Shown piece after piece: positions 52,099 through 64,000 of a stretch of DNA of 64,000 nt. Under the pieces are notes generated by a model. The model was given only the letters and a program-made list of their open reading frames with translations. It did not search any database and was not told where the DNA came from. This DNA is from an uncultured Bacilli bacterium. GTDB taxonomy: Bacteria; Bacillota_I; Bacilli_A; RF39; UBA660. Position 1 is the first letter of the stretch, and each line of letters starts with the position of its first letter. The DNA lies in contig CANRNY010000002.1 in the NCBI GenBank assembly GCA_947632085.1, forward strand, positions 14,151 to 78,150, read 5' to 3'. Position numbers and translations under genes: made by a program.

Positions 52099-52157
52099 AT
52101 ATTGTAATTCTCTATTATTTAAGTTATAATTACTAGAGAATAGGGAGTGTGGCAAGT

Positions 52158-55100
52158 ATGAAAATTATGTTGATGGATGCTACAAAATTAGTAAATTTAG
52201 TTCTTCCTAATGATGTTTTTGGTAACTATTGGATTGTTAATGCTAACAGAGAAAATTTAGTTAGTGTCCAAGCTTCCGAAGGTAATTGGGTGTTAAAAAG
52301 TAATAGTGATGTTAAAGTATTTAGAAATGGTACTGCTGTAGATGATACTTTACTTGAATATGAAAAATTTTATACTCTTAAAAATGTTTTATTAGGAGAT
52401 AGTTATGTTATTTATACTTGTCCAGTTTATGATGAAAATGCTTTACAATTAAATATTTCGATAAATGGTTTAAATGGTAATAATACGTGGTATATAGGTA
52501 ATAATGGAGCACAAAATGGAGATGGTAGTTCTAGTTATCCTAATATTATTTCATATGAACAACCTGGAGTAGCAAAAAATCAATTAAAATTAGATTATAA
52601 TAATGGTATTTATTCAGTTACAAATATAAATCCACAAATACCAATGTATATTAATGGAGCTCCAGCTGTAAATGCAGATTTAAGATATGGAGATACAATA
52701 TTTATTTTAGGATTAAAATTATCAATTATTAAAGATATATTCTATATTAATAATCCAAATAAATTAGTTAAATTCGATTCACAAATGTTTAATATGAGAA
52801 TGACTCAGGAACTTGATTTTTCAAAGATTCCAACAGAACCTGATCCAGTTATTGAGATGTATAAAAAAGAAGATTATTTCTTAAAACCACCAAGATTTGA
52901 TGAGAGAATCGAAGAGAAAACTTTAGTTATTGATCCACCACCAGCTGCCCAAAAGCAAGAAGAAATGCCAGCTATTTTAACGATGGGTTCAATGATGATG
53001 ATGGGTATGAGTTCAATGATGACAGGAGTTATGACTTTAACGAATGTTATTAATGGAACAACACAGTTATCAGCAGCTTTACCATCATTACTAACGGCAG
53101 CAGCAATGCTTTCATGTATGCTTATCTTACCAGCTGTTAGTAAAATGTATAATAAACATAAAAAAGTAGTATATGAAAGAAAAAGACAAGCAACGTATAG
53201 TAATTATGTTAATAAGAAAAGAGAAGAATTTTTAATTGAAATAAAAAGAGAACAACAACTTTTAATTGAAAAATATATTCCATTAAAAGATGTTGGTGAT
53301 ATTATCTTGTATAAAAAGAGAAATTTATGGGAAAAGAATGCTGATGATTATGACTTTTTATCTTTAAGATTAGGTATTGGTTCAATTCCACCATTCTTTA
53401 AAGTTAATTATCCTGACGAACATTTCTCAATGGAAGATGAAGATAATTTAATGGGCTATTTAAGAGAGTTAGAAAAAGAAACTAATTTACTTGAAAATGT
53501 TCCAGTTACTTATTCATTTGTAGAAAAATATATAACAGCTGTTATTGGACAGAAAAATGTTACTAATCCATTTTTAAGAGGACTTTTATTACAAATAATT
53601 GCTTATCATGGTTATGATTCATTAAAAGTATGTGTATTTACAAATAAAGAGAATGAAAAGTTCTGGGAAGATATTAAAGATTGTCCATATTTTTGGGATG
53701 ATAATAGAACATTAAGATTTTTCGGAACGAATACTGATGAAATAAATCAAATAAGTTCTTATTTTGAAGAATTACTTAATAGTATAAAAGAAGCTAATGA
53801 AGAAAAAGATGCAGTAGGTGGTCAAAAAGGAACAGCTAAATTATCAACTAGATATTTAATTATTACGGATGATATTGATTTAGTTAGAAATGTAAGTGTT
53901 ATTCGTTCTTTAATTGAGTCAGTTGAATATGTTGGTATTAGTTTGTTAATATTTACAGAAAAATTAAATTCTTTACCTAATGAAGTTGAACACTTTATAA
54001 GTGTTGATGAACGTACTGGTGGCGTATTTGAAAGAGTATTATCAGATAGCCGTAGAATTAATTTTGTACCAGATTTTATGTATGGTTCACTTGAAAAATA
54101 TACTTATGTTTTATCTAATATTCCAATTGCTTTAAATGGTGGTAAATTCCAGTTACCTTCTTCATATTCTTTCTTAGAAATGTATAATGTATCTAATGTT
54201 AATCAATTAAATGCTTTAGCAAGGTGGAAAGAAAGTGATCCAATTAATTCATTAGCTGTACCAATTGGTGTTAATGAGTATGGTGAATTATTTAAGTTAG
54301 ATTTACATGAAAAAGCGCATGGACCACATGGCTTGATTGCTGGTATGACTGGTTCAGGTAAATCAGAATTTATTATTACATTTATCTTAAGTACAGCAAT
54401 TAATTTCCATCCATATGAAGTACAGTTTGTTTTAATCGATTATAAAGGTGGAGGTTTAGCTGGAGCTTTCGAAAATAGAGAGACAGGTTTAAGATTACCA
54501 CATCTAGCTGGAACAATTACCAACTTAGATGTTAGTGAAATAAATCGTAGTTTAGCATCATTACAAAGTGAACTTAAAAGACGTCAAGCAGTATTTAATA
54601 AAGCAAGAGATAAAGTTGGTGAATCAACTATTGATATTTATAAGTATCAAAGATTATATCGTAATGGACAAGTTGATGAACCTGTATCACATTTGTTTAT
54701 TATTTCTGATGAGTTTGCAGAGTTAAAAGCGCAACAACCAGATTTTATGAACGAACTTATTTCAACAGCTCGTATTGGACGTTCATTAGGTGTTCACTTA
54801 ATTTTGGCTACACAAAAGCCTAGTGGTGTTGTTAATGACCAAATTTGGTCAAATGCGAAGTTTAAAGTTTGTTTAAAAGTTCAAGATAGATCAGATAGTC
54901 AAGAAATGATTAAAAGACCTGATGCTGCTTCTTTAAAAGAAACTGGTCGTTTCTTCTTACAAGTTGGTTATGATGAATATTTTGCTTTAGGTCAATCAGC
55001 TTGGACTGGAGCTCCTTATTATGAATCTGATGTAAGAAAGAAAAAGATTGATAATTCAATTACCTTTGTTGATAACTTAGGAATGCCTATTAAAGTTGTT

Positions 55101-56825
55101 GAAGATGGCCGTAATAGTTTCTCTGGAGTATTAAAAGGTGAAGAATTACCAAATATTATGAAATACTTAGTAGATGTTTCAAAAAAAGAAAATATTAAAG
55201 TTAAACAATTATGGCTTAATGCTTTAGCACCAGTTATTTATATTGATGCTTTAAAAGAAAAATATAGCTATAAGAAAATTGCTTGTGATATTAATCCAGT
55301 AATTGGTGAATATGATGCGCCTAACTTACAAAAACAAGGTTTACTTACTATGCCAATTACTACGCAAGGTAACTGGATAGTTTATGGTATGGCTGATAGT
55401 GGTAAAGAAGAAATGATTAATTCATTAGTTTATTCTTGTATTACGACTTATTCACCAGCTGAAATAAATTTATATTTACTTGATTTTGGAGCAGAAACTT
55501 TAAAAGTTTATCGTAAAGCACCACAAGTTGGTGATGTAATATTACAAAACGATGTTGATAAAGTTATTAATTTATGGAAAGTAATTAGTGATACGGTTGC
55601 TAAGAGAAAGAAATTATTCGCTGATTTTGGTGGTGATTATATTTCTTATTCTAAAGCTACTGGTAAGGTTATTCCAAATATAGTAATTATTATTAATGGT
55701 TTTGAATTATATAATGAAAATTTTGGGGATGATACATTTGATTTATTAGCAACATTAACTCGTGATTGTCAAAAGTATGGTGTTTACTTTATTATGACAT
55801 CAACTACTTCTAATGGTATTAGAACTAGACTTTCACAATACTTACCAAATCATTTAGTATTCCAAATGAATGATAAGTATGATTATTCTTCATTACTTGC
55901 AAGAACAAAAATTGAACCAGCTAATGTAAGTGGTCGTGGTTTAGTAAAACTAGATTCAGTATTTGAATTCCAAGCTGCTGTACCAACAGAAAAAGAAAAT
56001 TTAAATACTTTTGTTTTAGATAAGATTAATGAATTATGTAAATTATATCCTGATAGTGCACCAAAGGTTCCAGTACTTCCAGATGTAGTAACTGTCGCTT
56101 ATTGTTCTGATCAAAGAAAAGGTGTTAATTCTATTCCAGTTGGGATTGAAAAAGAATCATTACAAGTTAGAACTTTCGATTTAACAAGAAGTACAGTTAA
56201 TATCATAACAGGTATGGAATTTAATGAAATTAAAAACTTTGGGGAACTATTTATTAGAGAAGTTGCTAGTTGTATTGGTAAAAATTGTTATGTATATGAC
56301 TTAGAAAAAGCTTATAAAGATTTAGAGAATTATACAACTTATTATGACAATACAATTTTAGATAACTTTAAAACTTTTGGTAAACAAGTCTTTGATATGT
56401 ATACAAAATATAAAGATTCAGGATTTGATGTCGAATCATTAAAAGAATACGGAGAATATATTTGTTTTATCGTTGGAATTGATAAATTTAAAAATATGTT
56501 AGCGACTGAATTTGATGGGGCTTATAGTGGATTAGTTTCAATGATAAAAGGAATGCCTAAAGTTAGATTCGTAATAATTGATTCAAGTGATAATATTAAG
56601 AAACGTGAGTTTGAACCATGGTACAAAGATACAGTATCAGGTACAAGAGGCGTTTGGGTAGGCAATGGTATGGGTACACAATATACGATTAAATCGACAT
56701 TATCTTCTAGAGTATTATCTGCTAAATTGGAAAAGAATTTTGGTTATTACGTAGATGGAAATACAACTGTTTTAGTTAAGCTTATTTCTGAAATGGGAGA
56801 TGAAGAAGTTTACGAGACTTTATAA
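52158..56825 (+). CDS. essC: Type VII secretion system ATPase EssC/YukB (FtsK/SpoIIIE family)
   Basis: FHA-like N-terminus and two hydrophobic segments. D1 core 'LHEKAHGPHGLIAGMTGSGKSEF...LIDYKGGG...FIISDEFAELK...RIGRSLGVHLILATQKPSGV' closely matches S. aureus EssC from memory. Two further, degenerate P-loop domains ('YGMADSGKEEM'). ATG 52158 is better spaced from GGGAG than track GTG 52149. Confidence 0.95.
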   Translation: MKIMLMDATKLVNLVLPNDVFGNYWIVNANRENLVSVQASEGNWVLKSNSDVKVFRNGTAVDDTLLEYEKFYTLKNVLLGDSYVIYTCPVYDENALQLNISINGLNGNNTWYIGNNGAQNGDGSSSYPNIISYEQPGVAKNQLKLDYNNGIYSVTNINPQIPMYINGAPAVNADLRYGDTIFILGLKLSIIKDIFYINNPNKLVKFDSQMFNMRMTQELDFSKIPTEPDPVIEMYKKEDYFLKPPRFDERIEEKTLVIDPPPAAQKQEEMPAILTMGSMMMMGMSSMMTGVMTLTNVINGTTQLSAALPSLLTAAAMLSCMLILPAVSKMYNKHKKVVYERKRQATYSNYVNKKREEFLIEIKREQQLLIEKYIPLKDVGDIILYKKRNLWEKNADDYDFLSLRLGIGSIPPFFKVNYPDEHFSMEDEDNLMGYLRELEKETNLLENVPVTYSFVEKYITAVIGQKNVTNPFLRGLLLQIIAYHGYDSLKVCVFTNKENEKFWEDIKDCPYFWDDNRTLRFFGTNTDEINQISSYFEELLNSIKEANEEKDAVGGQKGTAKLSTRYLIITDDIDLVRNVSVIRSLIESVEYVGISLLIFTEKLNSLPNEVEHFISVDERTGGVFERVLSDSRRINFVPDFMYGSLEKYTYVLSNIPIALNGGKFQLPSSYSFLEMYNVSNVNQLNALARWKESDPINSLAVPIGVNEYGELFKLDLHEKAHGPHGLIAGMTGSGKSEFIITFILSTAINFHPYEVQFVLIDYKGGGLAGAFENRETGLRLPHLAGTITNLDVSEINRSLASLQSELKRRQAVFNKARDKVGESTIDIYKYQRLYRNGQVDEPVSHLFIISDEFAELKAQQPDFMNELISTARIGRSLGVHLILATQKPSGVVNDQIWSNAKFKVCLKVQDRSDSQEMIKRPDAASLKETGRFFLQVGYDEYFALGQSAWTGAPYYESDVRKKKIDNSITFVDNLGMPIKVVEDGRNSFSGVLKGEELPNIMKYLVDVSKKENIKVKQLWLNALAPVIYIDALKEKYSYKKIACDINPVIGEYDAPNLQKQGLLTMPITTQGNWIVYGMADSGKEEMINSLVYSCITTYSPAEINLYLLDFGAETLKVYRKAPQVGDVILQNDVDKVINLWKVISDTVAKRKKLFADFGGDYISYSKATGKVIPNIVIIINGFELYNENFGDDTFDLLATLTRDCQKYGVYFIMTSTTSNGIRTRLSQYLPNHLVFQMNDKYDYSSLLARTKIEPANVSGRGLVKLDSVFEFQAAVPTEKENLNTFVLDKINELCKLYPDSAPKVPVLPDVVTVAYCSDQRKGVNSIPVGIEKESLQVRTFDLTRSTVNIITGMEFNEIKNFGELFIREVASCIGKNCYVYDLEKAYKDLENYTTYYDNTILDNFKTFGKQVFDMYTKYKDSGFDVESLKEYGEYICFIVGIDKFKNMLATEFDGAYSGLVSMIKGMPKVRFVIIDSSDNIKKREFEPWYKDTVSGTRGVWVGNGMGTQYTIKSTLSSRVLSAKLEKNFGYYVDGNTTVLVKLISEMGDEEVYETL

Positions 56826-56858: not shown

Positions 56859-56887
56859 TTGACTTTAAATTTTTTTAAGTGTATTAT
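56859..56887 (+). promoter_or_regulatory. Candidate promoter of the yukD-esx operon
   Basis: TTGACT (56859-56864), 17-nt spacer, TATTAT (56882-56887). Preceded by hairpin GGGGTTAAC/GTTAACCTC (56826-56848). Confidence 0.5.
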
Positions 56888-56986: not shown

Positions 56987-57244
56987 ATGAATAATAATAA
57001 GGTCTGTGTAGATTTGATTGTGCCTAGTATCGAAGAAAGATACAATGTTTTTATTCCTGTTAATAAGAAGACTATTGAAATTATATTCTTATTAAATAAG
57101 GCGATTAGTGATATGACAGATGGTAGTTTTCCAATGTCTGATAAGTTGTCATTAATTAATGCTGATAACGGGGCTGTTTATGATGTTGATAAAACTTTTT
57201 TAGAGAACAACATTTTAAATGGTGCAAAAATAATTTTGATATAA
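56987..57244 (+). CDS. esaB: YukD/EsaB-like ubiquitin-fold T7SS protein
   Basis: 85 aa. The 'VCVDLIVPSIEERYNVFIPVNKKTIEI...' beta-grasp-like pattern, the size and the position next to essC all fit. Confidence 0.75.
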   Translation: MNNNKVCVDLIVPSIEERYNVFIPVNKKTIEIIFLLNKAISDMTDGSFPMSDKLSLINADNGAVYDVDKTFLENNILNGAKIILI

Positions 57245-57259
57245 GGAGGTGTAAGATTA

Positions 57260-57568
57260 GTGGAAACATTTAGAATTTCAGGAGAAGAAATGGGTCAAAC
57301 TATTTCTATGTTAAAAAGTGCTGCTGAAGCAATGAACGATGTAGCTGACGAGATGAAAGAAACTGTTAAAAACGTATTACTTACAAGTGGGTTAAGTGGT
57401 GATACTGCAAACACTTTAACTGAAATGTATGATCAAGACGTATTAACTTCTATTCGTAATTTTAACGAAGAATTAAATGAATATATAGCTAAAAATGAAA
57501 CAGTTTATAATGCTGCTCAAGAAACAAGTTCAGCAACAAATAGAATTGCTAGTTCTGTTGTAAAATAA
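57260..57568 (+). CDS. Small helical WXG100-superfamily-like protein (LSG in place of WXG)
   Basis: 102 aa, helix-turn-helix length, central 'SGLSGDTANTL'. AAGGAGG RBS, GTG start. Confidence 0.6.
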   Translation: METFRISGEEMGQTISMLKSAAEAMNDVADEMKETVKNVLLTSGLSGDTANTLTEMYDQDVLTSIRNFNEELNEYIAKNETVYNAAQETSSATNRIASSVVK

Positions 57569-57589
57569 TTGATGAAAGGGTGATTATAG

Positions 57590-57907
57590 GTGAAAGAGAC
57601 ATTCGATGTCCAAGCTGCAACTGAAGCTTTAAAAACAGCTTTAGCAAGTAATGATGAATTAATTGCTAAATTTGCTGATGCAAATAAAAAAGTAGAAGAA
57701 GCTTTTACTTCTGCTGGTGGAGCATTAGGTGGTAATTTAGGTACTATTGCTGGTAACTTATGGGTAGAAGGCTCTGGAGAAAGCTTCGAACATAAAGTTA
57801 GAACTCAAACTGAAAATTTCCTTGCTTATAAAGTTAATGAAATCATTAATGAAATGGAATCATTTTCTGAATCAGCAAGTCAAACTTATGGTAATAGTGG
57901 TCAATAA
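57590..57907 (+). CDS. Small helical WXG100-superfamily-like protein
   Basis: 105 aa, central 'LWVEGSGESFEHKV'. Paired with the preceding ORF. Confidence 0.6.
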   Translation: MKETFDVQAATEALKTALASNDELIAKFADANKKVEEAFTSAGGALGGNLGTIAGNLWVEGSGESFEHKVRTQTENFLAYKVNEIINEMESFSESASQTYGNSGQ

Positions 57908-58000: not shown

Positions 58001-58297
58001 ATGGCTTATGATTTTGAATTTGACGATGAAAAAGTAACAGAAGTAGTTGAGACGATTTTTGAATCATATGAGAATCTTTGGGATAATTGTGATAATTTAT
58101 ATAATGAACTAGGAAATATGGAAGATTCTTGGTCAGGGGATACGTATGAAAATTATGTATCTGGTATTAAATCATATGAAGGTTCCGTCAGAGGTGTTCC
58201 TTCAATTCTTTGGGCTTTTAGAGAAGCTTTACTTGATGCCAAAGAAAAAGGAAATGATTTAATAACTAATGTAAAATCTTCACTTGATATATTTTAA
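58001..58297 (+). CDS. WXG100 family protein (EsxA-like)
   Basis: 98 aa with central 'EDSWSGDTYENYV' (W-S-G). AAGGAGG RBS. Confidence 0.8.
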   Translation: MAYDFEFDDEKVTEVVETIFESYENLWDNCDNLYNELGNMEDSWSGDTYENYVSGIKSYEGSVRGVPSILWAFREALLDAKEKGNDLITNVKSSLDIF

Positions 58298-58308
58298 GGA
58301 GGTAAATT

Positions 58309-58773
58309 ATGGCAGGGTTGAATGAAAATTTTTCTAATAGTCGTGTTTCTTCAACAATATCAAAAACAGTTTTATCAAACTTTAAAGAAGTTTATGATAT
58401 TGAAGGAATGGCAGGACATATATCTAGTTTTGCTGGTTTACTTCAAGCATATGAAGAAGAGACAGGTAAAATAGATGATTCAGTATCGGAAACGATAGGT
58501 GCTGATGGCTTTAAAGGTGATTATGCCAATAAATTACTTGATACATATGAAAGTTTAGTTGGTAATTTTACTGGCTTTCTTGAGCATTATGATGAATGGA
58601 ATGATATGGTTGCTGTTGAAGACTCAATGTATGGCTCATTTAATGAAAAATCAATAGGTGAGTATAAAAGTGTTGGTAGTGGCGGTAAACTACCTTATAA
58701 GAAAGCTTCTGAAAATCGTAGTCCTAGTGGTAAAAAAGTTACTACTACTAATACTACTCCTGCAGTTAAATAA
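58309..58773 (+). CDS. Helical T7SS-associated protein (FKG variant of the WXG turn) with Ser/Thr-rich tail
   Basis: 154 aa, 'GADGFKGDYANKLLDTYE'. No TM. Confidence 0.55.
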   Translation: MAGLNENFSNSRVSSTISKTVLSNFKEVYDIEGMAGHISSFAGLLQAYEEETGKIDDSVSETIGADGFKGDYANKLLDTYESLVGNFTGFLEHYDEWNDMVAVEDSMYGSFNEKSIGEYKSVGSGGKLPYKKASENRSPSGKKVTTTNTTPAVK

Positions 58774-58808: not shown

Positions 58809-59048
58809 ATGAAATATAGTACAGTTGGTGGAGCAACTGAAGAGATTGATAAGGCATTATCAGCTGCTGATGCTCTTTTAGCACTTCTTACTGTAGATAC
58901 TTTGGATTCGGATGCTGCACATCTTGATACAATTAATGAAAAAGTAAAAAAATTGAAAGAAGATGTAGAGCAAAATAAGGAAGATTTAATTGAAAAAGCT
59001 GAAAAGATGAAAACGATTGATGATGAAGTGACGGGAGGTTGGTCATAA
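58809..59048 (+). CDS. Small helical protein (79 aa), T7SS locus
   Basis: GAGGTGA RBS and a coiled-coil-like sequence. Its stop overlaps the next start by 1 nt. Confidence 0.5.
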   Translation: MKYSTVGGATEEIDKALSAADALLALLTVDTLDSDAAHLDTINEKVKKLKEDVEQNKEDLIEKAEKMKTIDDEVTGGWS

Positions 59049-61582
59049 TGCCATATTTAAAAATAAATAAAGCTAATCTTACTGATACCGTTGCTAAGTC
59101 TGAAGAAACAAAAGAGAGTTTAAATAGTGCTGAAACAGCTTTAACTAATTTTGTTAGTTCAGCGAAAACACATTGTAGTAATTGGGAAAATAGCTATTGG
59201 CAAAAATTTAAAGATCAAGCTGGAATTAGTGAAAGCTCTTATATGATAACTACTGCAGATGGTTCTGAATTAGATAAAGATCGATATAATGCTGCAGTAG
59301 AGGCTGCTGCAAGACAGATTGTAAAAAATAAAATGGAAGAATATAAAGGCTATACAACTGATATGACTAAAGTAATACATGAAAATTATACGTTGATGCT
59401 TGATGTATATACAGCTTTTAATAATGTACAAAATTATTTAAATGAATTTGAAGGCAATACAGTTGGTTCATTAGAAGAATACTTTAAAGCTAGTTTTGAT
59501 AGACATGATCTTGATTATGAAGATTATAATTACAGTTTTGAATACGAAGTTGATAAAAAAGGAAATGAAATTCAAACTTTAGCTGTTGAAGTTTCAGGTG
59601 CTTATGCAAACTTAGATGAAACTGCAGTAGAATTTATTACTAGTGAAGGAGCTAAAATGATTTTACCATATGTTAAAGTATTTGATTTGGTAGATGATGA
59701 AGAGTTCCAAAATATGACTCCAGAACAACAACGTGCAGTTGTTACAAAGGTAATTCAAGAGGCAGAGGATGCAGTAGATGATCAAACTGAAAGTTATAGA
59801 AAAAGAGGATTATATTCTGTTACTGATGCTGATGAAATTGCTGATAGATATGAACAAGATACTGGCGTAAAATATAATAAAAAACGTGTTGCTAAAGAAG
59901 CTGATTACTTTAGAGAAAAAGCTGGTGTTGATAAAAAGAATGATTTTGGTCTTGGACAAACTGCAGCTGGTATGGTAACAGGAGTTGGGGTTTATAATTT
60001 TGCGAAGAGTAATGGCCCTGCTAAAAGTGAAGACTTAGAAAAAGATGGCCTTGGTTATTTAAAAAGAGGTCGTGATAATGTTGCTGAAGGTAAAAATTTG
60101 GACGAAGATGGTAATGTAGATAAGAAAAAATTAATTAAACCTGAACCTGGTGAAGGTCCAAAAACTAAAGATGATGAAACGGAAGAAATTGCATTAGATA
60201 AAGAAATTGAAATTGGTGATGAAGACACTGAAACTGTGAGTGAAGGTACTAGTGAAGATGCTAGTGGAGCTACTGGTGGTTCCGGCGGAGGTACCGGTGG
60301 CGGTGGCTACTCTGATGATGGAGGTTCATCCGGTGGTGGCGGAGGTGGAAGCAGCTCAAGCTCTAGCTCAAGCTCAACTCCAGAACCAAGTCCTGAACCA
60401 AAACCAGATACAACACCAGAACCAGTAGTTGATAAAATTATTCCAGATAATAGAACAACAGAGTTAATAGATGATCCAATTCCTAAGAGTCCTGAGGTTG
60501 AAACTAAATATGATAATGCTACTATTGATAGATTAGCAGAAGAAGAATACTATAATAGATATACTCCAGAAGAATTAGCTGATTATAGAAATGAACAAAT
60601 GAATGAATTAGAAGAAATGTATGTTCAAGAAGATAAGAGTGAATTAATTGAATTCTTAACTGATTCAGGATATGAATTAAGTGATGCTCAAGTAATTGCT
60701 GAAGATAAAGAACTTAGTCTTGCGGCATTCTTAGCTGCTAAACAAAGTGCTGATATGGCAGATATTTCTAAATCAATTGCTCAAGGGGCAAATGTGGATA
60801 TGTCACATTTTGATACTAGATATGATGATGTTCCATCTTATAAAGATTTAGTTTCTGGTGAAACAAGTGCTTCATTATCAAATCCAAATAACGATCCAAA
60901 TGTAGCTAATGCTAGACAAAATATGAATAATGCTAAAGCTCAATATGATAAAGCTGTTGATAATGCTAATAAGTCAATAGAAAATGCAAATGATAATAAA
61001 GACAAATTAGATAGCATTAGAAAGAGCATAGTTAAAAAATCTGGAAATGATAGTAGTAAATGGTCTGAAGCAGAAATTGAGAAATATAATGATGCTGTTA
61101 AGGATTACAATGATTCAGTAAGAGAAGCTAATGAAGATGTTGCTACAGCCCAAGAAGCTAAAGAAACATATGAAAATACTAAAGAAGCATATGAAAATAG
61201 TAGAGAAGCTTACTATGAACGTGTAAAAGAAGACTTACAAGCTAATAAAGGAACTACTGATAATGTAGGAGAAACACCAGAAGTATCTGATACACCACAA
61301 AATGGTGGTGGAACACCAGATGTTGAAGTTAAAGATGATGGTATTGGTCTTCCTAAAGAACCAGCGGGAACTGAAGTTAAAGACGATGGTATTGGTGTTC
61401 CAGCTGAGTCAGTTGATAACTCACAAGATGGTTATGTTTCAGTAGATGAAAATGGAACAGGTATGGGTATTAGAAATACTGATACAGAAAATGATAATTT
61501 TACAAATGAAAATAATGAAGAATACATATACCATGAATCTGAAGGACAAGTAAATGTTAGCAATAATGGTATTGGTGTATAA
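59048..61582 (+). CDS. Large acidic candidate T7SS substrate (LXG-like N-terminal helical region, Gly/Ser/Pro linker, coiled-coil C-terminal part)
   Basis: GGGAGG is 9 nt before ATG 59048. No signal peptide. Glycine-zipper-like 'GLGQTAAGMVTGVGVYNFA', low-complexity 'GGSGGGTGGGGYSDDGGSSGGGGGGSSSSSSSSSTPEPSPEPKPDTTPEP', and terminal 'VKDDGIG(L/V)P' repeats. Confidence 0.6.
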   Translation: MPYLKINKANLTDTVAKSEETKESLNSAETALTNFVSSAKTHCSNWENSYWQKFKDQAGISESSYMITTADGSELDKDRYNAAVEAAARQIVKNKMEEYKGYTTDMTKVIHENYTLMLDVYTAFNNVQNYLNEFEGNTVGSLEEYFKASFDRHDLDYEDYNYSFEYEVDKKGNEIQTLAVEVSGAYANLDETAVEFITSEGAKMILPYVKVFDLVDDEEFQNMTPEQQRAVVTKVIQEAEDAVDDQTESYRKRGLYSVTDADEIADRYEQDTGVKYNKKRVAKEADYFREKAGVDKKNDFGLGQTAAGMVTGVGVYNFAKSNGPAKSEDLEKDGLGYLKRGRDNVAEGKNLDEDGNVDKKKLIKPEPGEGPKTKDDETEEIALDKEIEIGDEDTETVSEGTSEDASGATGGSGGGTGGGGYSDDGGSSGGGGGGSSSSSSSSSTPEPSPEPKPDTTPEPVVDKIIPDNRTTELIDDPIPKSPEVETKYDNATIDRLAEEEYYNRYTPEELADYRNEQMNELEEMYVQEDKSELIEFLTDSGYELSDAQVIAEDKELSLAAFLAAKQSADMADISKSIAQGANVDMSHFDTRYDDVPSYKDLVSGETSASLSNPNNDPNVANARQNMNNAKAQYDKAVDNANKSIENANDNKDKLDSIRKSIVKKSGNDSSKWSEAEIEKYNDAVKDYNDSVREANEDVATAQEAKETYENTKEAYENSREAYYERVKEDLQANKGTTDNVGETPEVSDTPQNGGGTPDVEVKDDGIGLPKEPAGTEVKDDGIGVPAESVDNSQDGYVSVDENGTGMGIRNTDTENDNFTNENNEEYIYHESEGQVNVSNNGIGV
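61325..61420 (+). repeat. Tandem 48-nt duplication encoding EVKDDGIG(L/V)P units
   Basis: GAAGTTAAAGATGATGGTATTGGTCTTCC (61325) versus GAAGTTAAAGACGATGGTATTGGTGTTCC (61373). A third 'NNGIGV' lies at the C-terminus. Confidence 0.7.
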
Positions 61583-61603: not shown

Positions 61604-61978
61604 ATGAGAGAAAAGTATTTACCAATTGGAACGGTAGTTTTATTAAAAGGTGGAAAGAAAAGAGCGATGATTACTGGATTTTGTTCTGTAGCTCAAGAAA
61701 ATCAAGAAAAAATATATGATTACAGTGGATGTGTATATCCAGAAGGTTATTTAAGCTCTAATCAAGTTTGTTTATTCGATCATGATCAAATTGAAAAGAT
61801 TTTCTTCCTTGGCTTCGAAGATGATGAAGAAAAAGTCTTCAAAGATAAATTAAATAAAATTGTTTCTTTAATTGAAAATAACAATGGCAATACAAGTGTT
61901 AATGCAGATGGTACAGAAGGTAGTGCAGCTAGTACTGAACAAATAACTCCTTTTGCTCCAGCTGTTGAGGAAAATTAA
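61604..61978 (+). CDS. DUF4176-like protein (T7SS-associated)
   Basis: 'YLPIGTVVLLKGGKKRAMITGF...YDYSGCVYPEGY...LFDHDQIEKIFFLGFEDDEE' matches the DUF4176 pattern common in T7SSb/LXG loci. Confidence 0.7.
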   Translation: MREKYLPIGTVVLLKGGKKRAMITGFCSVAQENQEKIYDYSGCVYPEGYLSSNQVCLFDHDQIEKIFFLGFEDDEEKVFKDKLNKIVSLIENNNGNTSVNADGTEGSAASTEQITPFAPAVEEN

Positions 61979-62027: not shown

Positions 62028-62056
62028 TTGATTAATTAGGATAATTTTTATATAAT
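62028..62056 (+). promoter_or_regulatory. Candidate promoter of the esx pair
   Basis: TTGATT (62028-62033), 17-nt spacer, TATAAT (62051-62056). The leader contains hairpin AGTCAAG/CTTGACT. Confidence 0.55.
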
Positions 62057-62168
62057 TAGAAATATAAGGATATGATGAGTAAGCTAGGGGTGTTTGGTAT
62101 ATAAGTCAAGCATTGTATTCTTTATGTTACTTGACTATATTCTTATAAAATTTTATGGAGGTGAAAAT

Positions 62169-62866: not shown

Positions 62867-62894
62867 ATTATTTATACAGAAAGATGGTGTGATT

Positions 62895-64000
62895 ATGGCA
62901 TATGATTTTACCGCTGATAGTGATATTCAAACTACTTTATCTGGTGAATTAACTGCACAAGCTAGTGAGTTTGAAACACAAGTAAGTCAATTGTATAGCG
63001 AAATTGATGGTTTAGCTTCATCATGGAAAGGTGAGGACTATACAGCTTTTAATGAGGGAGCTCATGGTTATGAAAAAGCATTAGCTGATTTAAAAGAAAG
63101 TATAGATCTTTTTGCTAAACATTTTGAAAGACTTTCTGCGGGAACAGAGGAGTTGGCTGTCAGTCTTGCAACGATAATTGAAAATGCTTTAGAAGGCGGT
63201 GAAGCTGGAGGATCTAGTGGTTCAGGAGGAACTGGTGGTTCTGGTGATAGCGCTGATCAAGATGCTGCAAGAGGTCAAACAAAGAGTGATGGTTCAGTTA
63301 ATCCATATGGTGGAGGAAGACCTGATAGAGTAGAAAATCCAGATGGCTCTTATTCTTATGTCTATAGAGATAAAGATGGTAATATAAGACAAAAAGATAC
63401 TTGGGATAAAGATGGTAATTTAATTGGACAAGAGACTTATGATGAGGACGGTAAAACCAAAAATTATTCTATGCAAGTTGATCAGACCGATGGTTCTTAT
63501 GTCGTTGAAAAATTTGATGGCGATAATATATTATCTCATGAAGAAAGAGATGCTGATGATAAATTAATTAAGTCAATTGAATATGGATACGATGCTGATG
63601 GAAATAATAATTTAAAAACTACTACTAATGCTGATGGTACTCGCTTTGAAGAAGATATTTCAAATGACGAAACAGTAGGTATTAGAGTTTATGACGAAAA
63701 TAATGAACTACAATTTGAAAATAAAACAGAAAATGCTTCTGAAATAGCTGCAGCTTTAGCTGCTGGGGCTTCATATACTTTGGGACCTAATGGTATGTAT
63801 CGAATCGATTCTAAAGATGCTGATGGAACAGTTGAAACTGTATATGATAAAGATGGTTCTAAACGTAAATGTAAGTATCAAAATAGCGATGGTACTTCTA
63901 AACTGGAATATTATAATAATGGTGAGATTGAAGAAACATTTGAATATGATTCAGATGGAAATCCTACTGCCCATTACAAAGTTAATGAAGATGGTGAATT
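62895..64000 (+). CDS. WXG100-domain / Rhs (YD-repeat) polymorphic toxin, 5' part (runs off the window)
   Basis: Not in the ORF track because it has no stop. Translation MAYDFTADSDIQ...'ASSWKGEDYTAFN' (W-K-G), Gly/Ser linker, then YD repeats 'YRDKDGNIRQKDTWDKDGNLIGQETYDEDGKT', 'YGYDADGNN', 'YDKDGSKR', 'EYDSDGNPT'. Confidence 0.8.
   Translation, partial: MAYDFTADSDIQTTLSGELTAQASEFETQVSQLYSEIDGLASSWKGEDYTAFNEGAHGYEKALADLKESIDLFAKHFERLSAGTEELAVSLATIIENALEGGEAGGSSGSGGTGGSGDSADQDAARGQTKSDGSVNPYGGGRPDRVENPDGSYSYVYRDKDGNIRQKDTWDKDGNLIGQETYDEDGKTKNYSMQVDQTDGSYVVEKFDGDNILSHEERDADDKLIKSIEYGYDADGNNNLKTTTNADGTRFEEDISNDETVGIRVYDENNELQFENKTENASEIAAALAAGASYTLGPNGMYRIDSKDADGTVETVYDKDGSKRKCKYQNSDGTSKLEYYNNGEIEETFEYDSDGNPTAHYKVNEDGE

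Follow-up and report, generated by a model that had tools for sequence, protein, structure and literature searches.

The window analysed here is a stretch of 64,000 nucleotides (nt) from the genome of an uncultured Bacilli bacterium (contig CANRNY010000002.1). It carries on its forward strand a gene for a very acidic protein of 844 amino acids (aa), which is probably exported as an escorted cargo, of a non-LXG kind, by the neighbouring EssC-type type VII secretion system (T7SS). Upstream lies the essC gene (52149-56825; TIGR03928, E = 7e-291), which is followed by a terminator-like hairpin and then by a promoter-like site which, judging from its sequence, is the probable start of the operon holding the module. 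All genes of this module share a strand and either overlap or are separated by short gaps, and the + strand showed no terminator-like site between 56851 and 64000. The features concerned are the following.

56859..56887, + strand: promoter-like site TTGACT-17-TATTAT (consensus match only)
56987..57244, + strand: 85-aa EsaB/YukD-like protein (position and size only; weak ubiquitin-like matches)
57260..57907, + strand: two Esx-like helical proteins of 102 aa (57260-57568) and 105 aa (57590-57907) (small helical open reading frames)
58001..58297, + strand: 98-aa WXG100-like partner (SWSGD turn; sub-threshold profile matches)
58309..58773, + strand: 154-aa helical protein in a variable slot (no Pfam match)
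58809..59048, + strand: 79-aa helical partner (TAATG overlap with the large gene)
59048..61582, stop codon included, + strand: large acidic family gene (open reading frame, starts of homologues, AlphaFold2 model)
61604..61978, + strand: 124-aa small DUF4176 protein of the Ltc-type chaperone family (PF13780, E = 8.8e-28)

The order EsaB-like, two Esx-like, WXG-like, variable-slot, helical protein of 75-88 aa, family protein and DUF4176 is kept in all the loci of this type (first module) that were examined. In every locus the family gene is directly preceded by a helical gene, of 75-88 aa in the first module and of 135-143 aa in a second module described below, and a DUF4176 gene stands directly 3' of it in every locus examined. 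The three small helical open reading frames (ORFs) that the original prediction placed before the large gene are indeed present, as is the stop/start overlap of 1 nt at 59048: in the string TAATG, the A of the ATG at 59048 is shared with the TAA stop codon of the 79-aa ORF. The 79-aa gene is translationally coupled to the large gene through this overlap. A ribosome-binding site, GGGAGG, is located about 10 nt 5' of the same ATG. The coordinates and strand of the large ORF were correctly given, and only its length needs amending, from the 847 aa counted from an upstream TTG (59039) to the 844 aa counted from ATG 59048, a start that agrees with all homologues and with the database entry.

The product was described as highly acidic, and it contains 180 acidic against 87 basic residues, with a net charge of -93 and an isoelectric point (pI) of 4.29, a value that falls, among this genome's ORFs of 250 aa or longer, in the lowest 1.5%. 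The reported lack of a signal peptide is borne out; the protein has no transmembrane-grade segment either (the highest Kyte-Doolittle mean over 19 residues is 0.85) and contains a single cysteine. Scans of this protein and its partners against Pfam, NCBIfam and PHROGs returned no meaningful family. One match of the 844-aa protein to HATPase_c (E = 0.007) was dismissed, as it falls in the low-complexity tail. Sequence searches of the PDB with the protein and with profiles of its N- and C-terminal parts gave nothing below E = 0.02, and Foldseek found no match for the full-length model in the PDB and BFVD at E up to 0.001, the best non-significant matches being generic long helical hairpins such as BAR domains, colicin R-domains and tape-measure proteins. 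The earlier statement that no toxin fold is recognisable in the C-terminal half therefore holds for Pfam, PDB and Foldseek alike.

The architecture of the protein was derived from an AlphaFold2 model built from 18 sequences (mean predicted local distance difference test score, pLDDT, 63.9) and, for the family as a whole, from this model and an alignment of 116 relatives. Six parts succeed one another along the protein.

59069..59455, + strand: N-terminal long helical hairpin, residues 8-136 (AlphaFold2, pLDDT 74-88; family consensus)
59468..59932, + strand: mixed alpha/beta mid domain, residues 141-295 (AlphaFold2, pLDDT about 50-80)
59945..60007, + strand: Gly-rich hydrophobic helix FGLGQTAAGMVTGVGVYNFAK, residues 300-320 (most hydrophobic 18-mer; pLDDT below 50)
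60020..60505, + strand: spacer between the head and the C-terminal domain, residues 325-486 (composition, GC content, AlphaFold2)
60515..61249, + strand: all-helical C-terminal domain, residues 490-734 (pLDDT 75-91; region matched by most of 139 relatives)
61250..61579, + strand: disordered acidic tail, residues 735-844 (AlphaFold2, motif search)

The helical N-terminus that had been proposed takes the form of a predicted long hairpin, in which helices 8-57 and 77-136 are joined by a turn bearing a small beta-hairpin; W46 and the starting motif M-x-x-[VL]-K-x-N are conserved throughout the family, and the hairpin is on this model a candidate targeting domain. The mid domain bears the family motif E-x-x-NAFYTY-x-G. 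The glycine-zipper-like stretch GLGQTAAGMVTGVGVYNFA could be located at residues 301-319, the most hydrophobic stretch of the protein, and the corresponding helix (300-320) is a candidate either for the binding site of DUF4176 or for a membrane-inserting segment. In the spacer, residues 327-346 are predicted to form two short helices (pLDDT about 80) and residues 377-486 constitute a disordered, acidic Gly/Ser/Pro linker, the local GC content of which is 0.44-0.46 versus about 0.30 elsewhere, in line with the GC-rich linker described originally. The region formerly read as an Asn/Lys/Glu-rich coiled coil forms, in the AlphaFold2 model, a long hairpin of helices 617-665 and 674-734 that follows a small helical bundle in the C-terminal domain of about 250 aa; its turn carries K-W-S-x-E, then Y-N-x-A-V-K-x-Y-N. 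The idea that this hairpin is an internal duplicate of the N-terminal one is unsupported (hhalign probability 12%). The terminal repeats are real as well, since the motif [DEN][DN]G[IT]G occurs four times in the tail, as VKDDGIGLP, VKDDGIGVP, VDENGTGMG and, at the very end of the protein, VSNNGIGV. The first two correspond to a 24-nt direct repeat with one mismatch, the copies lying 48 nt apart, and endings related to VSNNGIGV recur across the family.

This family was outside the scope of the original prediction. An exhaustive HMMER search of 1.84 billion representative sequences retrieved 139 relatives at E up to 1e-3, 126 of them below 1e-10, most of which match only the C-terminal part of the profile; the C-terminal helical domain is what defines the family. 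Word-indexed homology searches returned only 3-7 relatives, probably because low-complexity words dominated their candidates. The common order of parts is helical hairpin, mid domain, Gly-rich hydrophobic helix, Gly/Ser/Pro linker, helical C-terminal domain and acidic tail, and the K-W-S-x-E...Y-N unit of the C-terminal hairpin is present in 1 to about 6 copies. All members are acidic, with a full-length pI of 4.05-5.3 (up to 6.0 in a few short fragments), and their cysteine content is 0.31% versus a genome mean of 1.04%. A transmembrane-grade segment is found at the position of helix 300-320 in 33 of 140 listed relatives, and about a third of this list has such segments at residues 65-110, near residue 310, or at both places. 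Isolated relatives match Pfam glycine-zipper models; no Pfam family is shared among 61 members. In one metagenomic relative, P0121 (625 aa), a phage-tail-lysozyme domain (PF18013, residues 119-258, E = 4.9e-33) replaces the mid domain between the N-terminal helices and the family C-terminal domain, in a protein that has no signal peptide. Two others, P0089 and P0128, contain two tandem C-terminal domains, each preceded by a Gly-rich hydrophobic helix. The profile of the C-terminal domain matches 25 of the 27 species genomes of the window's genus, mostly twice and at a distance of 6-8 kb, but it gave no match in 150 genomes belonging to other genera of the order. The named records with this family are uncultured Bacilli genomes from rabbit gut metagenomes, and further loci come from other metagenomes. 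On sequence grounds it is most likely an undescribed, genus-restricted, non-LXG family.

The DUF4176-like gene announced after the large gene is beyond doubt, its PF13780 match scoring 96.6 bits against a curated cut-off of 25, and its product of 124 aa belongs to the "small" size class (70-130 aa) as defined in PMC12478183. DUF4176 proteins have been shown experimentally to be substrate-binding chaperones of T7SSb toxins, the small ones stabilising the membrane-depolarising toxin TelD (PMC12478183), and it has been proposed that small DUF4176 proteins cover hydrophobic, membrane-inserting helices (PMC12478183; 10.1101/2022.07.06.499029). Across ten related loci (L001, L002 and L014-L021), the core of the protein, its first 75 aa, is 93-100% identical, while neighbouring genes are 15-30% identical. 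Because the gene of this core, itself 95-100% identical, has only 57-77% identity at third codon positions between loci, this near-invariance points to purifying selection and not to recent transfer; recent recombination is ruled out by the same figure. Such near-invariance argues for a conserved binding partner. The selection is stronger than should be expected for a client-specific chaperone. Its position next to the family gene in all the related loci examined leads us to infer that the protein binds and stabilises the adjacent cargo.

The distribution of variation along the module was compared between the window and four distant loci. Identity is 74-76% for the EsaB-like proteins, where present, and 95-97% for residues 1-75 of DUF4176, whereas it is only 15-31% for all the others, namely the Esx-like, WXG-like, variable-slot, small and large proteins. 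A matrix of pairwise identities reveals mosaicism within the large protein itself: against L015, the C-terminal domain is 58% and DUF4176 99% identical versus 23-33% for the three upstream partners and for the head, which spans residues 1-330, and against L014 the corresponding values are 51% for the C-terminal domain versus 19-21% for head and partners. These values indicate that head and partners shift together, as a single cassette, with respect to the C-terminal domain, as a physically interacting complex of head and partners would produce. The polymorphic-toxin logic attached to the original prediction is thus inverted, the C-terminal half being conserved and the N-terminal half variable together with its partners.

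The locus had been described as a cargo and helper module of LXG type. The module itself is very probable, given the EssC gene upstream and the conserved gene order; membership of the LXG family was not upheld. The LXG profile PF04740 has no hit in the 844-aa protein (E up to 1) nor in 61 relatives (E up to 0.01), and no match anywhere in the genome. Comparison by hhalign of an N-terminal profile of 92 sequences with LXG gives a probability of 0.3%, against an LXG alignment of two sequences only, because PF04740 matches so few proteins in the genomes searched for this set (none in 61 genomes, and matches in 1 of 299). No L-x-G is conserved at the turn of the N-terminal hairpin, and the conserved W46 stands inside helix 1, about 12 residues before that turn. 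The small partners match neither Lap1/DUF3130 nor Lap2/DUF3958 of Pfam at E up to 1.

Among these partners, the 98-aa protein announced as a WXG protein does contain SWSGD, although its PF06013 match stays below threshold (E = 0.038, 14.7 bits against a cut-off of 27.3); TIGR03930 gives E = 0.0028, and the protein corresponds to the N-terminal WXG domain of a 688-aa protein of the second module (blastp E = 2.4e-4). The next slot is occupied elsewhere by proteins whose lengths range from 137 to 1220 aa. Those of 389 aa and more have a common N-terminal helical domain, to which the 154-aa protein of the window is only loosely similar (18-22% identity); it looks like a short form without the C-terminal extension. 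Slot counterparts of 842-1220 aa were observed at L002:1346-5008, L021:1892-5335 and L019:1341-3869. The 79-aa partner and its closer relatives (L001, L015, L018 and L019) end in M-x-x-[IL]-[DE]-x-[ED]-V-x-G, an ending that recalls the YxxxD/E and FxxxD export-arm motifs and is absent from the more distant counterparts of L002, L014, L017 and L021. Further upstream, the 85-aa EsaB-like protein is 74-96% identical to its counterparts in related loci, and the 102- and 105-aa Esx-like proteins are hypervariable (16-26% identity between loci, the closest relative excepted), the former having a sub-threshold WXG100 match (E = 1.2e-4).

A second module lies on the same contig, past the window, and comprises two Esx-like genes, the gene of the 688-aa WXG protein, genes of 263 aa and 140 aa, a 750-aa paralogue of the large protein and two DUF4176 genes. 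The paralogue, like the wider family absent from the earlier account, is encoded at C2:80413-82665 (L012:4414-6666), 7 kb downstream of the 844-aa gene and about 4.6 kb past the window end, and is 28% identical to the 844-aa protein over the C-terminal 376 residues (E = 7.5e-34). In L001, L014 and L015 the orthologues of this paralogue possess a transmembrane hairpin at about residues 65-125; the copy of this genome has lost it. The 688-aa protein begins in the window (62889-63998) and extends to C2:79105; its N-terminus is WXG100-like (PF06013, E = 3.3e-5), YD-like repeats are present, and Pfam gave neither an RHS nor a toxin match for it at E up to 0.001. Four large variable-slot proteins, two equivalent second-module proteins and two WXG-fused proteins were likewise without any Pfam toxin domain. 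The original suggestion that no immunity-like gene follows the large gene is upheld, the next genes being those of DUF4176 and Esx-like proteins. The stretch 62028-62165, 5' of the Esx-like gene at 62166, is conserved between loci and translates as an apparent N-terminal extension (…LLDYILIKFYGGENM). The conserved peptide at 62094-62165 is better explained as a conserved promoter and ribosome-binding site; the stretch reads better as a promoter, TTGATT-17-TATAAT (62028-62056), followed by the ribosome-binding site GGAGGAGAA, in which case the second module would have a promoter of its own. A second EssC gene (1519 aa) is located on another contig, at C12:46011-50570 on the - strand; its locus also encodes a YukD-like protein, small helical proteins, two large ones of 938 and 762 aa, and a further DUF4176. 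EsaA has no match in the genome, and YukC (EssB) has a sub-threshold match only (C14:28323-28472).

The module can be compared with several known systems. LXG toxins and small partners encoded upstream of them form helical bundles that serve for targeting (10.1101/2022.07.06.499029), and the LXG/Lap1/Lap2/DUF4176 complexes of Streptococcus intermedius (TelA, TelB and TelD) share with our locus a large leaderless protein encoded beside essC, preceding genes for small alpha-helical WXG100-like proteins, an accompanying DUF4176 gene and a predicted long helical hairpin at the N-terminus; as in the telD cluster, a small DUF4176 gene ends the operon (10.1101/2022.07.06.499029; PMC12478183). The present locus differs by three partners instead of two, by a conserved C-terminal domain without a toxin fold and by the absence of an immunity gene. 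Moreover, its variable unit is the head with the partners, and its DUF4176 is nearly invariant and not client-specific in look. The TslA/TslM proteins of Staphylococcus aureus offer the reverse arrangement, in which the helical domain used for targeting is C-terminal and binds small helical partners (PMC10730906; PMC13560087), and the 844-aa protein is similar in that a conserved helical hairpin is C-terminal and the variable part N-terminal. Unlike them, however, this family has no lipase domain, it has a conserved hairpin at the very N-terminus too, and its partners co-vary with the N-terminal head and not with the C-terminal domain. The C-terminal hairpin (pLDDT 79-87) is not related significantly to WXG proteins (hhalign probability 1%; ESAT-6-like PDB entries, E = 0.3-0.4), and no enzymatic N-terminal domain was found in the 844-aa protein, the lysozyme domain being that of one relative. 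The module resembles TspA, TelD and TelE in its helix, which in these toxins too is Gly-rich or hydrophobic, in the small DUF4176 encoded close by, and in an escort made up of several proteins (PMC12478183; 10.64898/2026.03.12.711312). Those toxins, however, possess a recognisable LXG domain. Their membrane-active part is the C-terminal domain, and a polytopic membrane immunity protein such as DUF443 or TipE is encoded beside it, neither of which holds here. No membrane-protein gene occurs in or after the module in any locus examined, and the Gly-rich helix is of marginal transmembrane grade. The nuclease-type E colicins (E2, E3 and E9) provide an architectural analogy only. They are leaderless, multi-domain exported proteins with a long antiparallel hairpin, there the receptor-binding part, and their R-domains are among the best Foldseek matches (E = 0.26-1.6, non-significant); there is no significant similarity of structure or sequence, and the export route, domain order and host envelope differ.

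On the basis of these comparisons, the following course of events can be proposed for an exported cargo. In the cytoplasm, the N-terminal hairpin (8-136) would assemble with the co-encoded 98-, 154- and 79-aa proteins into a WXG100-like helical bundle, a composite secretion signal comparable to that of LXG with Lap1 and Lap2; the co-variation of head and partners supports such a targeting bundle. The downstream DUF4176 would keep the cargo soluble, most plausibly by covering helix 300-320. This fits the number of DUF4176 genes per type of protein, since the first-module type has one hydrophobic helix and one DUF4176, and the second-module type usually has an added transmembrane hairpin and two DUF4176. 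EssC would then export the cargo. Outside the cell, the active part would be the conserved helical C-terminal domain with the acidic tail, set off from the head by the disordered spacer, and its action would presumably be non-enzymatic, by binding or by association with membrane or cell envelope instead of catalysis. An extracellular fate is supported by the leaderless peptidoglycan hydrolase P0121, by the depletion of cysteine in the family and by the spacer, which resembles wall-spanning segments. Variants of the T7SS that contain non-canonical parts are widespread, and so are substrates with small WXG-like genes at their flanks (PMC11217815). Several observations nevertheless weigh against an escorted cargo. 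The host is uncultured, export is deduced from its genome, and the AlphaFold2 model is of moderate quality (mean pLDDT 63.9). No similarity of sequence or fold connects the N-terminus with LXG, and none of the partners matches a Lap family. EssB and EsaA, the canonical membrane partners in T7SSb, are missing from the matches in this genome, a near-invariant DUF4176 core beside a hypervariable supposed client fits poorly with the known toxin-specific chaperones, and a protein of fixed position, found in 25 of 27 species and lacking an immunity gene, would also fit a component of the machine or of the envelope.

Three other explanations have to be considered in this context. That the protein is a membrane-active type VII toxin, depolarising or pore-forming in the manner of TspA, TelD and TelE, seems unlikely. 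According to this reading, the Gly-rich helix, and in paralogues also the transmembrane hairpin of the head, would insert in the target membrane after export, having been shielded beforehand by the small DUF4176. Helix 300-320 is indeed the most hydrophobic stretch, a hydrophobic Gly-rich segment recurs at its position in the family, and both the transmembrane-grade segments of about a third of the 140 listed relatives and the glycine-zipper matches of isolated ones point the same way. TelD is accompanied by small DUF4176 proteins, for which binding to membrane-inserting helices has been proposed (PMC12478183; 10.1101/2022.07.06.499029), and TelE is a glycine-zipper pore former within a multi-protein complex (10.64898/2026.03.12.711312). 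In the window's own protein, however, the hydrophobicity of this segment is only marginal (Kyte-Doolittle mean 0.83), conservation is highest in a soluble helical domain and not in the segment, and the family differs from accessory toxins in its fixed position and near-universal presence in the genus. No gene for a polytopic membrane protein, nor any other immunity-like gene, follows in the loci examined, whereas every known toxin of this type has one. It is, on the other hand, very improbable that the protein stays in the cytoplasm as an adaptor or scaffold bringing the neighbouring WXG-domain proteins (variable-slot or 688-aa) to EssC. Lap targeting factors do remain in the cell (10.1101/2022.07.06.499029), the 844-aa protein is very acidic and without signal peptide, and the variable-slot proteins of 842-1220 aa with a WXG-like N-terminus found in several loci could be the real cargo. 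A length of 844 aa, a linker like those of wall-spanning proteins, cysteine depletion and hydrophobic helices are nevertheless unlike an adaptor, the peptidoglycan hydrolase domain of a relative makes sense only outside the cell, and the large protein is retained in the window even though its variable slot encodes only 154 aa.

It is improbable, too, that the protein is a lineage-specific structural part of the type VII system or of the cell envelope of this genus instead of a usual cargo. The helix would then lie at or in the membrane, the Gly/Ser/Pro spacer would pass through the wall, and the helical stalk and acidic tail would be at the surface; such a part could partly replace the missing EsaA and EssB. 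The Pro/Gly/Ser spacer, with its roughly 110 disordered residues, resembles the wall-spanning segments of Gram-positive surface proteins. The presence in 25 of 27 species, mostly in two copies and at fixed positions beside essC, would agree with a structural role, as would the genome's lack of an EsaA match and its sub-threshold YukC match, T7SS variants with other components being known (PMC11217815). The hairpin is lengthened by 1 to about 6 K-W-S-x-E...Y-N units, as in stalks of variable length, and rapid divergence fits surface exposure. The hydrophobic helix is however too weak for a reliable membrane anchor, here and in many relatives, and core machine parts are usually conserved, while this protein is 20-30% identical where EsaB-like proteins are 75% identical. 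The adjoining DUF4176 and small helical partners are hallmarks of substrates and not of the apparatus, and the family occurs in none of the 150 sampled genomes of the other genera of the order (their EssC content was not examined). A broader conception, which we consider rather unlikely, is that of a non-toxin, genus-specific, type VII-dependent structure of the envelope or surface, with a membrane-held hypervariable head, a wall-spanning spacer, and a stalk of variable length with its acidic tail. It would be either a part of the apparatus replacing EsaA and EssB or a surface stalk under diversifying selection, and the near-invariant DUF4176 would couple this structure to EssC.

Type VII secretion in Bacillota is understood almost wholly through LXG toxins, their Lap partners and, recently, the DUF4176 chaperones. 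The locus described here shows the same escort logic, small helical partners and a DUF4176 beside EssC, serving a large protein without the defining LXG features. Its variation is inverted, in that a cassette of the supposed targeting head and the partners is exchanged between loci, conservation lies in the C-terminal "business end", and the chaperone hardly changes at all. Such escort logic is known already; the literature searched contains no description of the cargo family, of its inverted variation or of a near-frozen chaperone. The family is limited to a single genus, which is uncultured. If the proposed reading is true, it would widen the definition of type VII cargo, provide a natural system for asking what DUF4176 recognises, and point to a non-toxin, possibly structural, type VII output in the gut commensals of herbivores.

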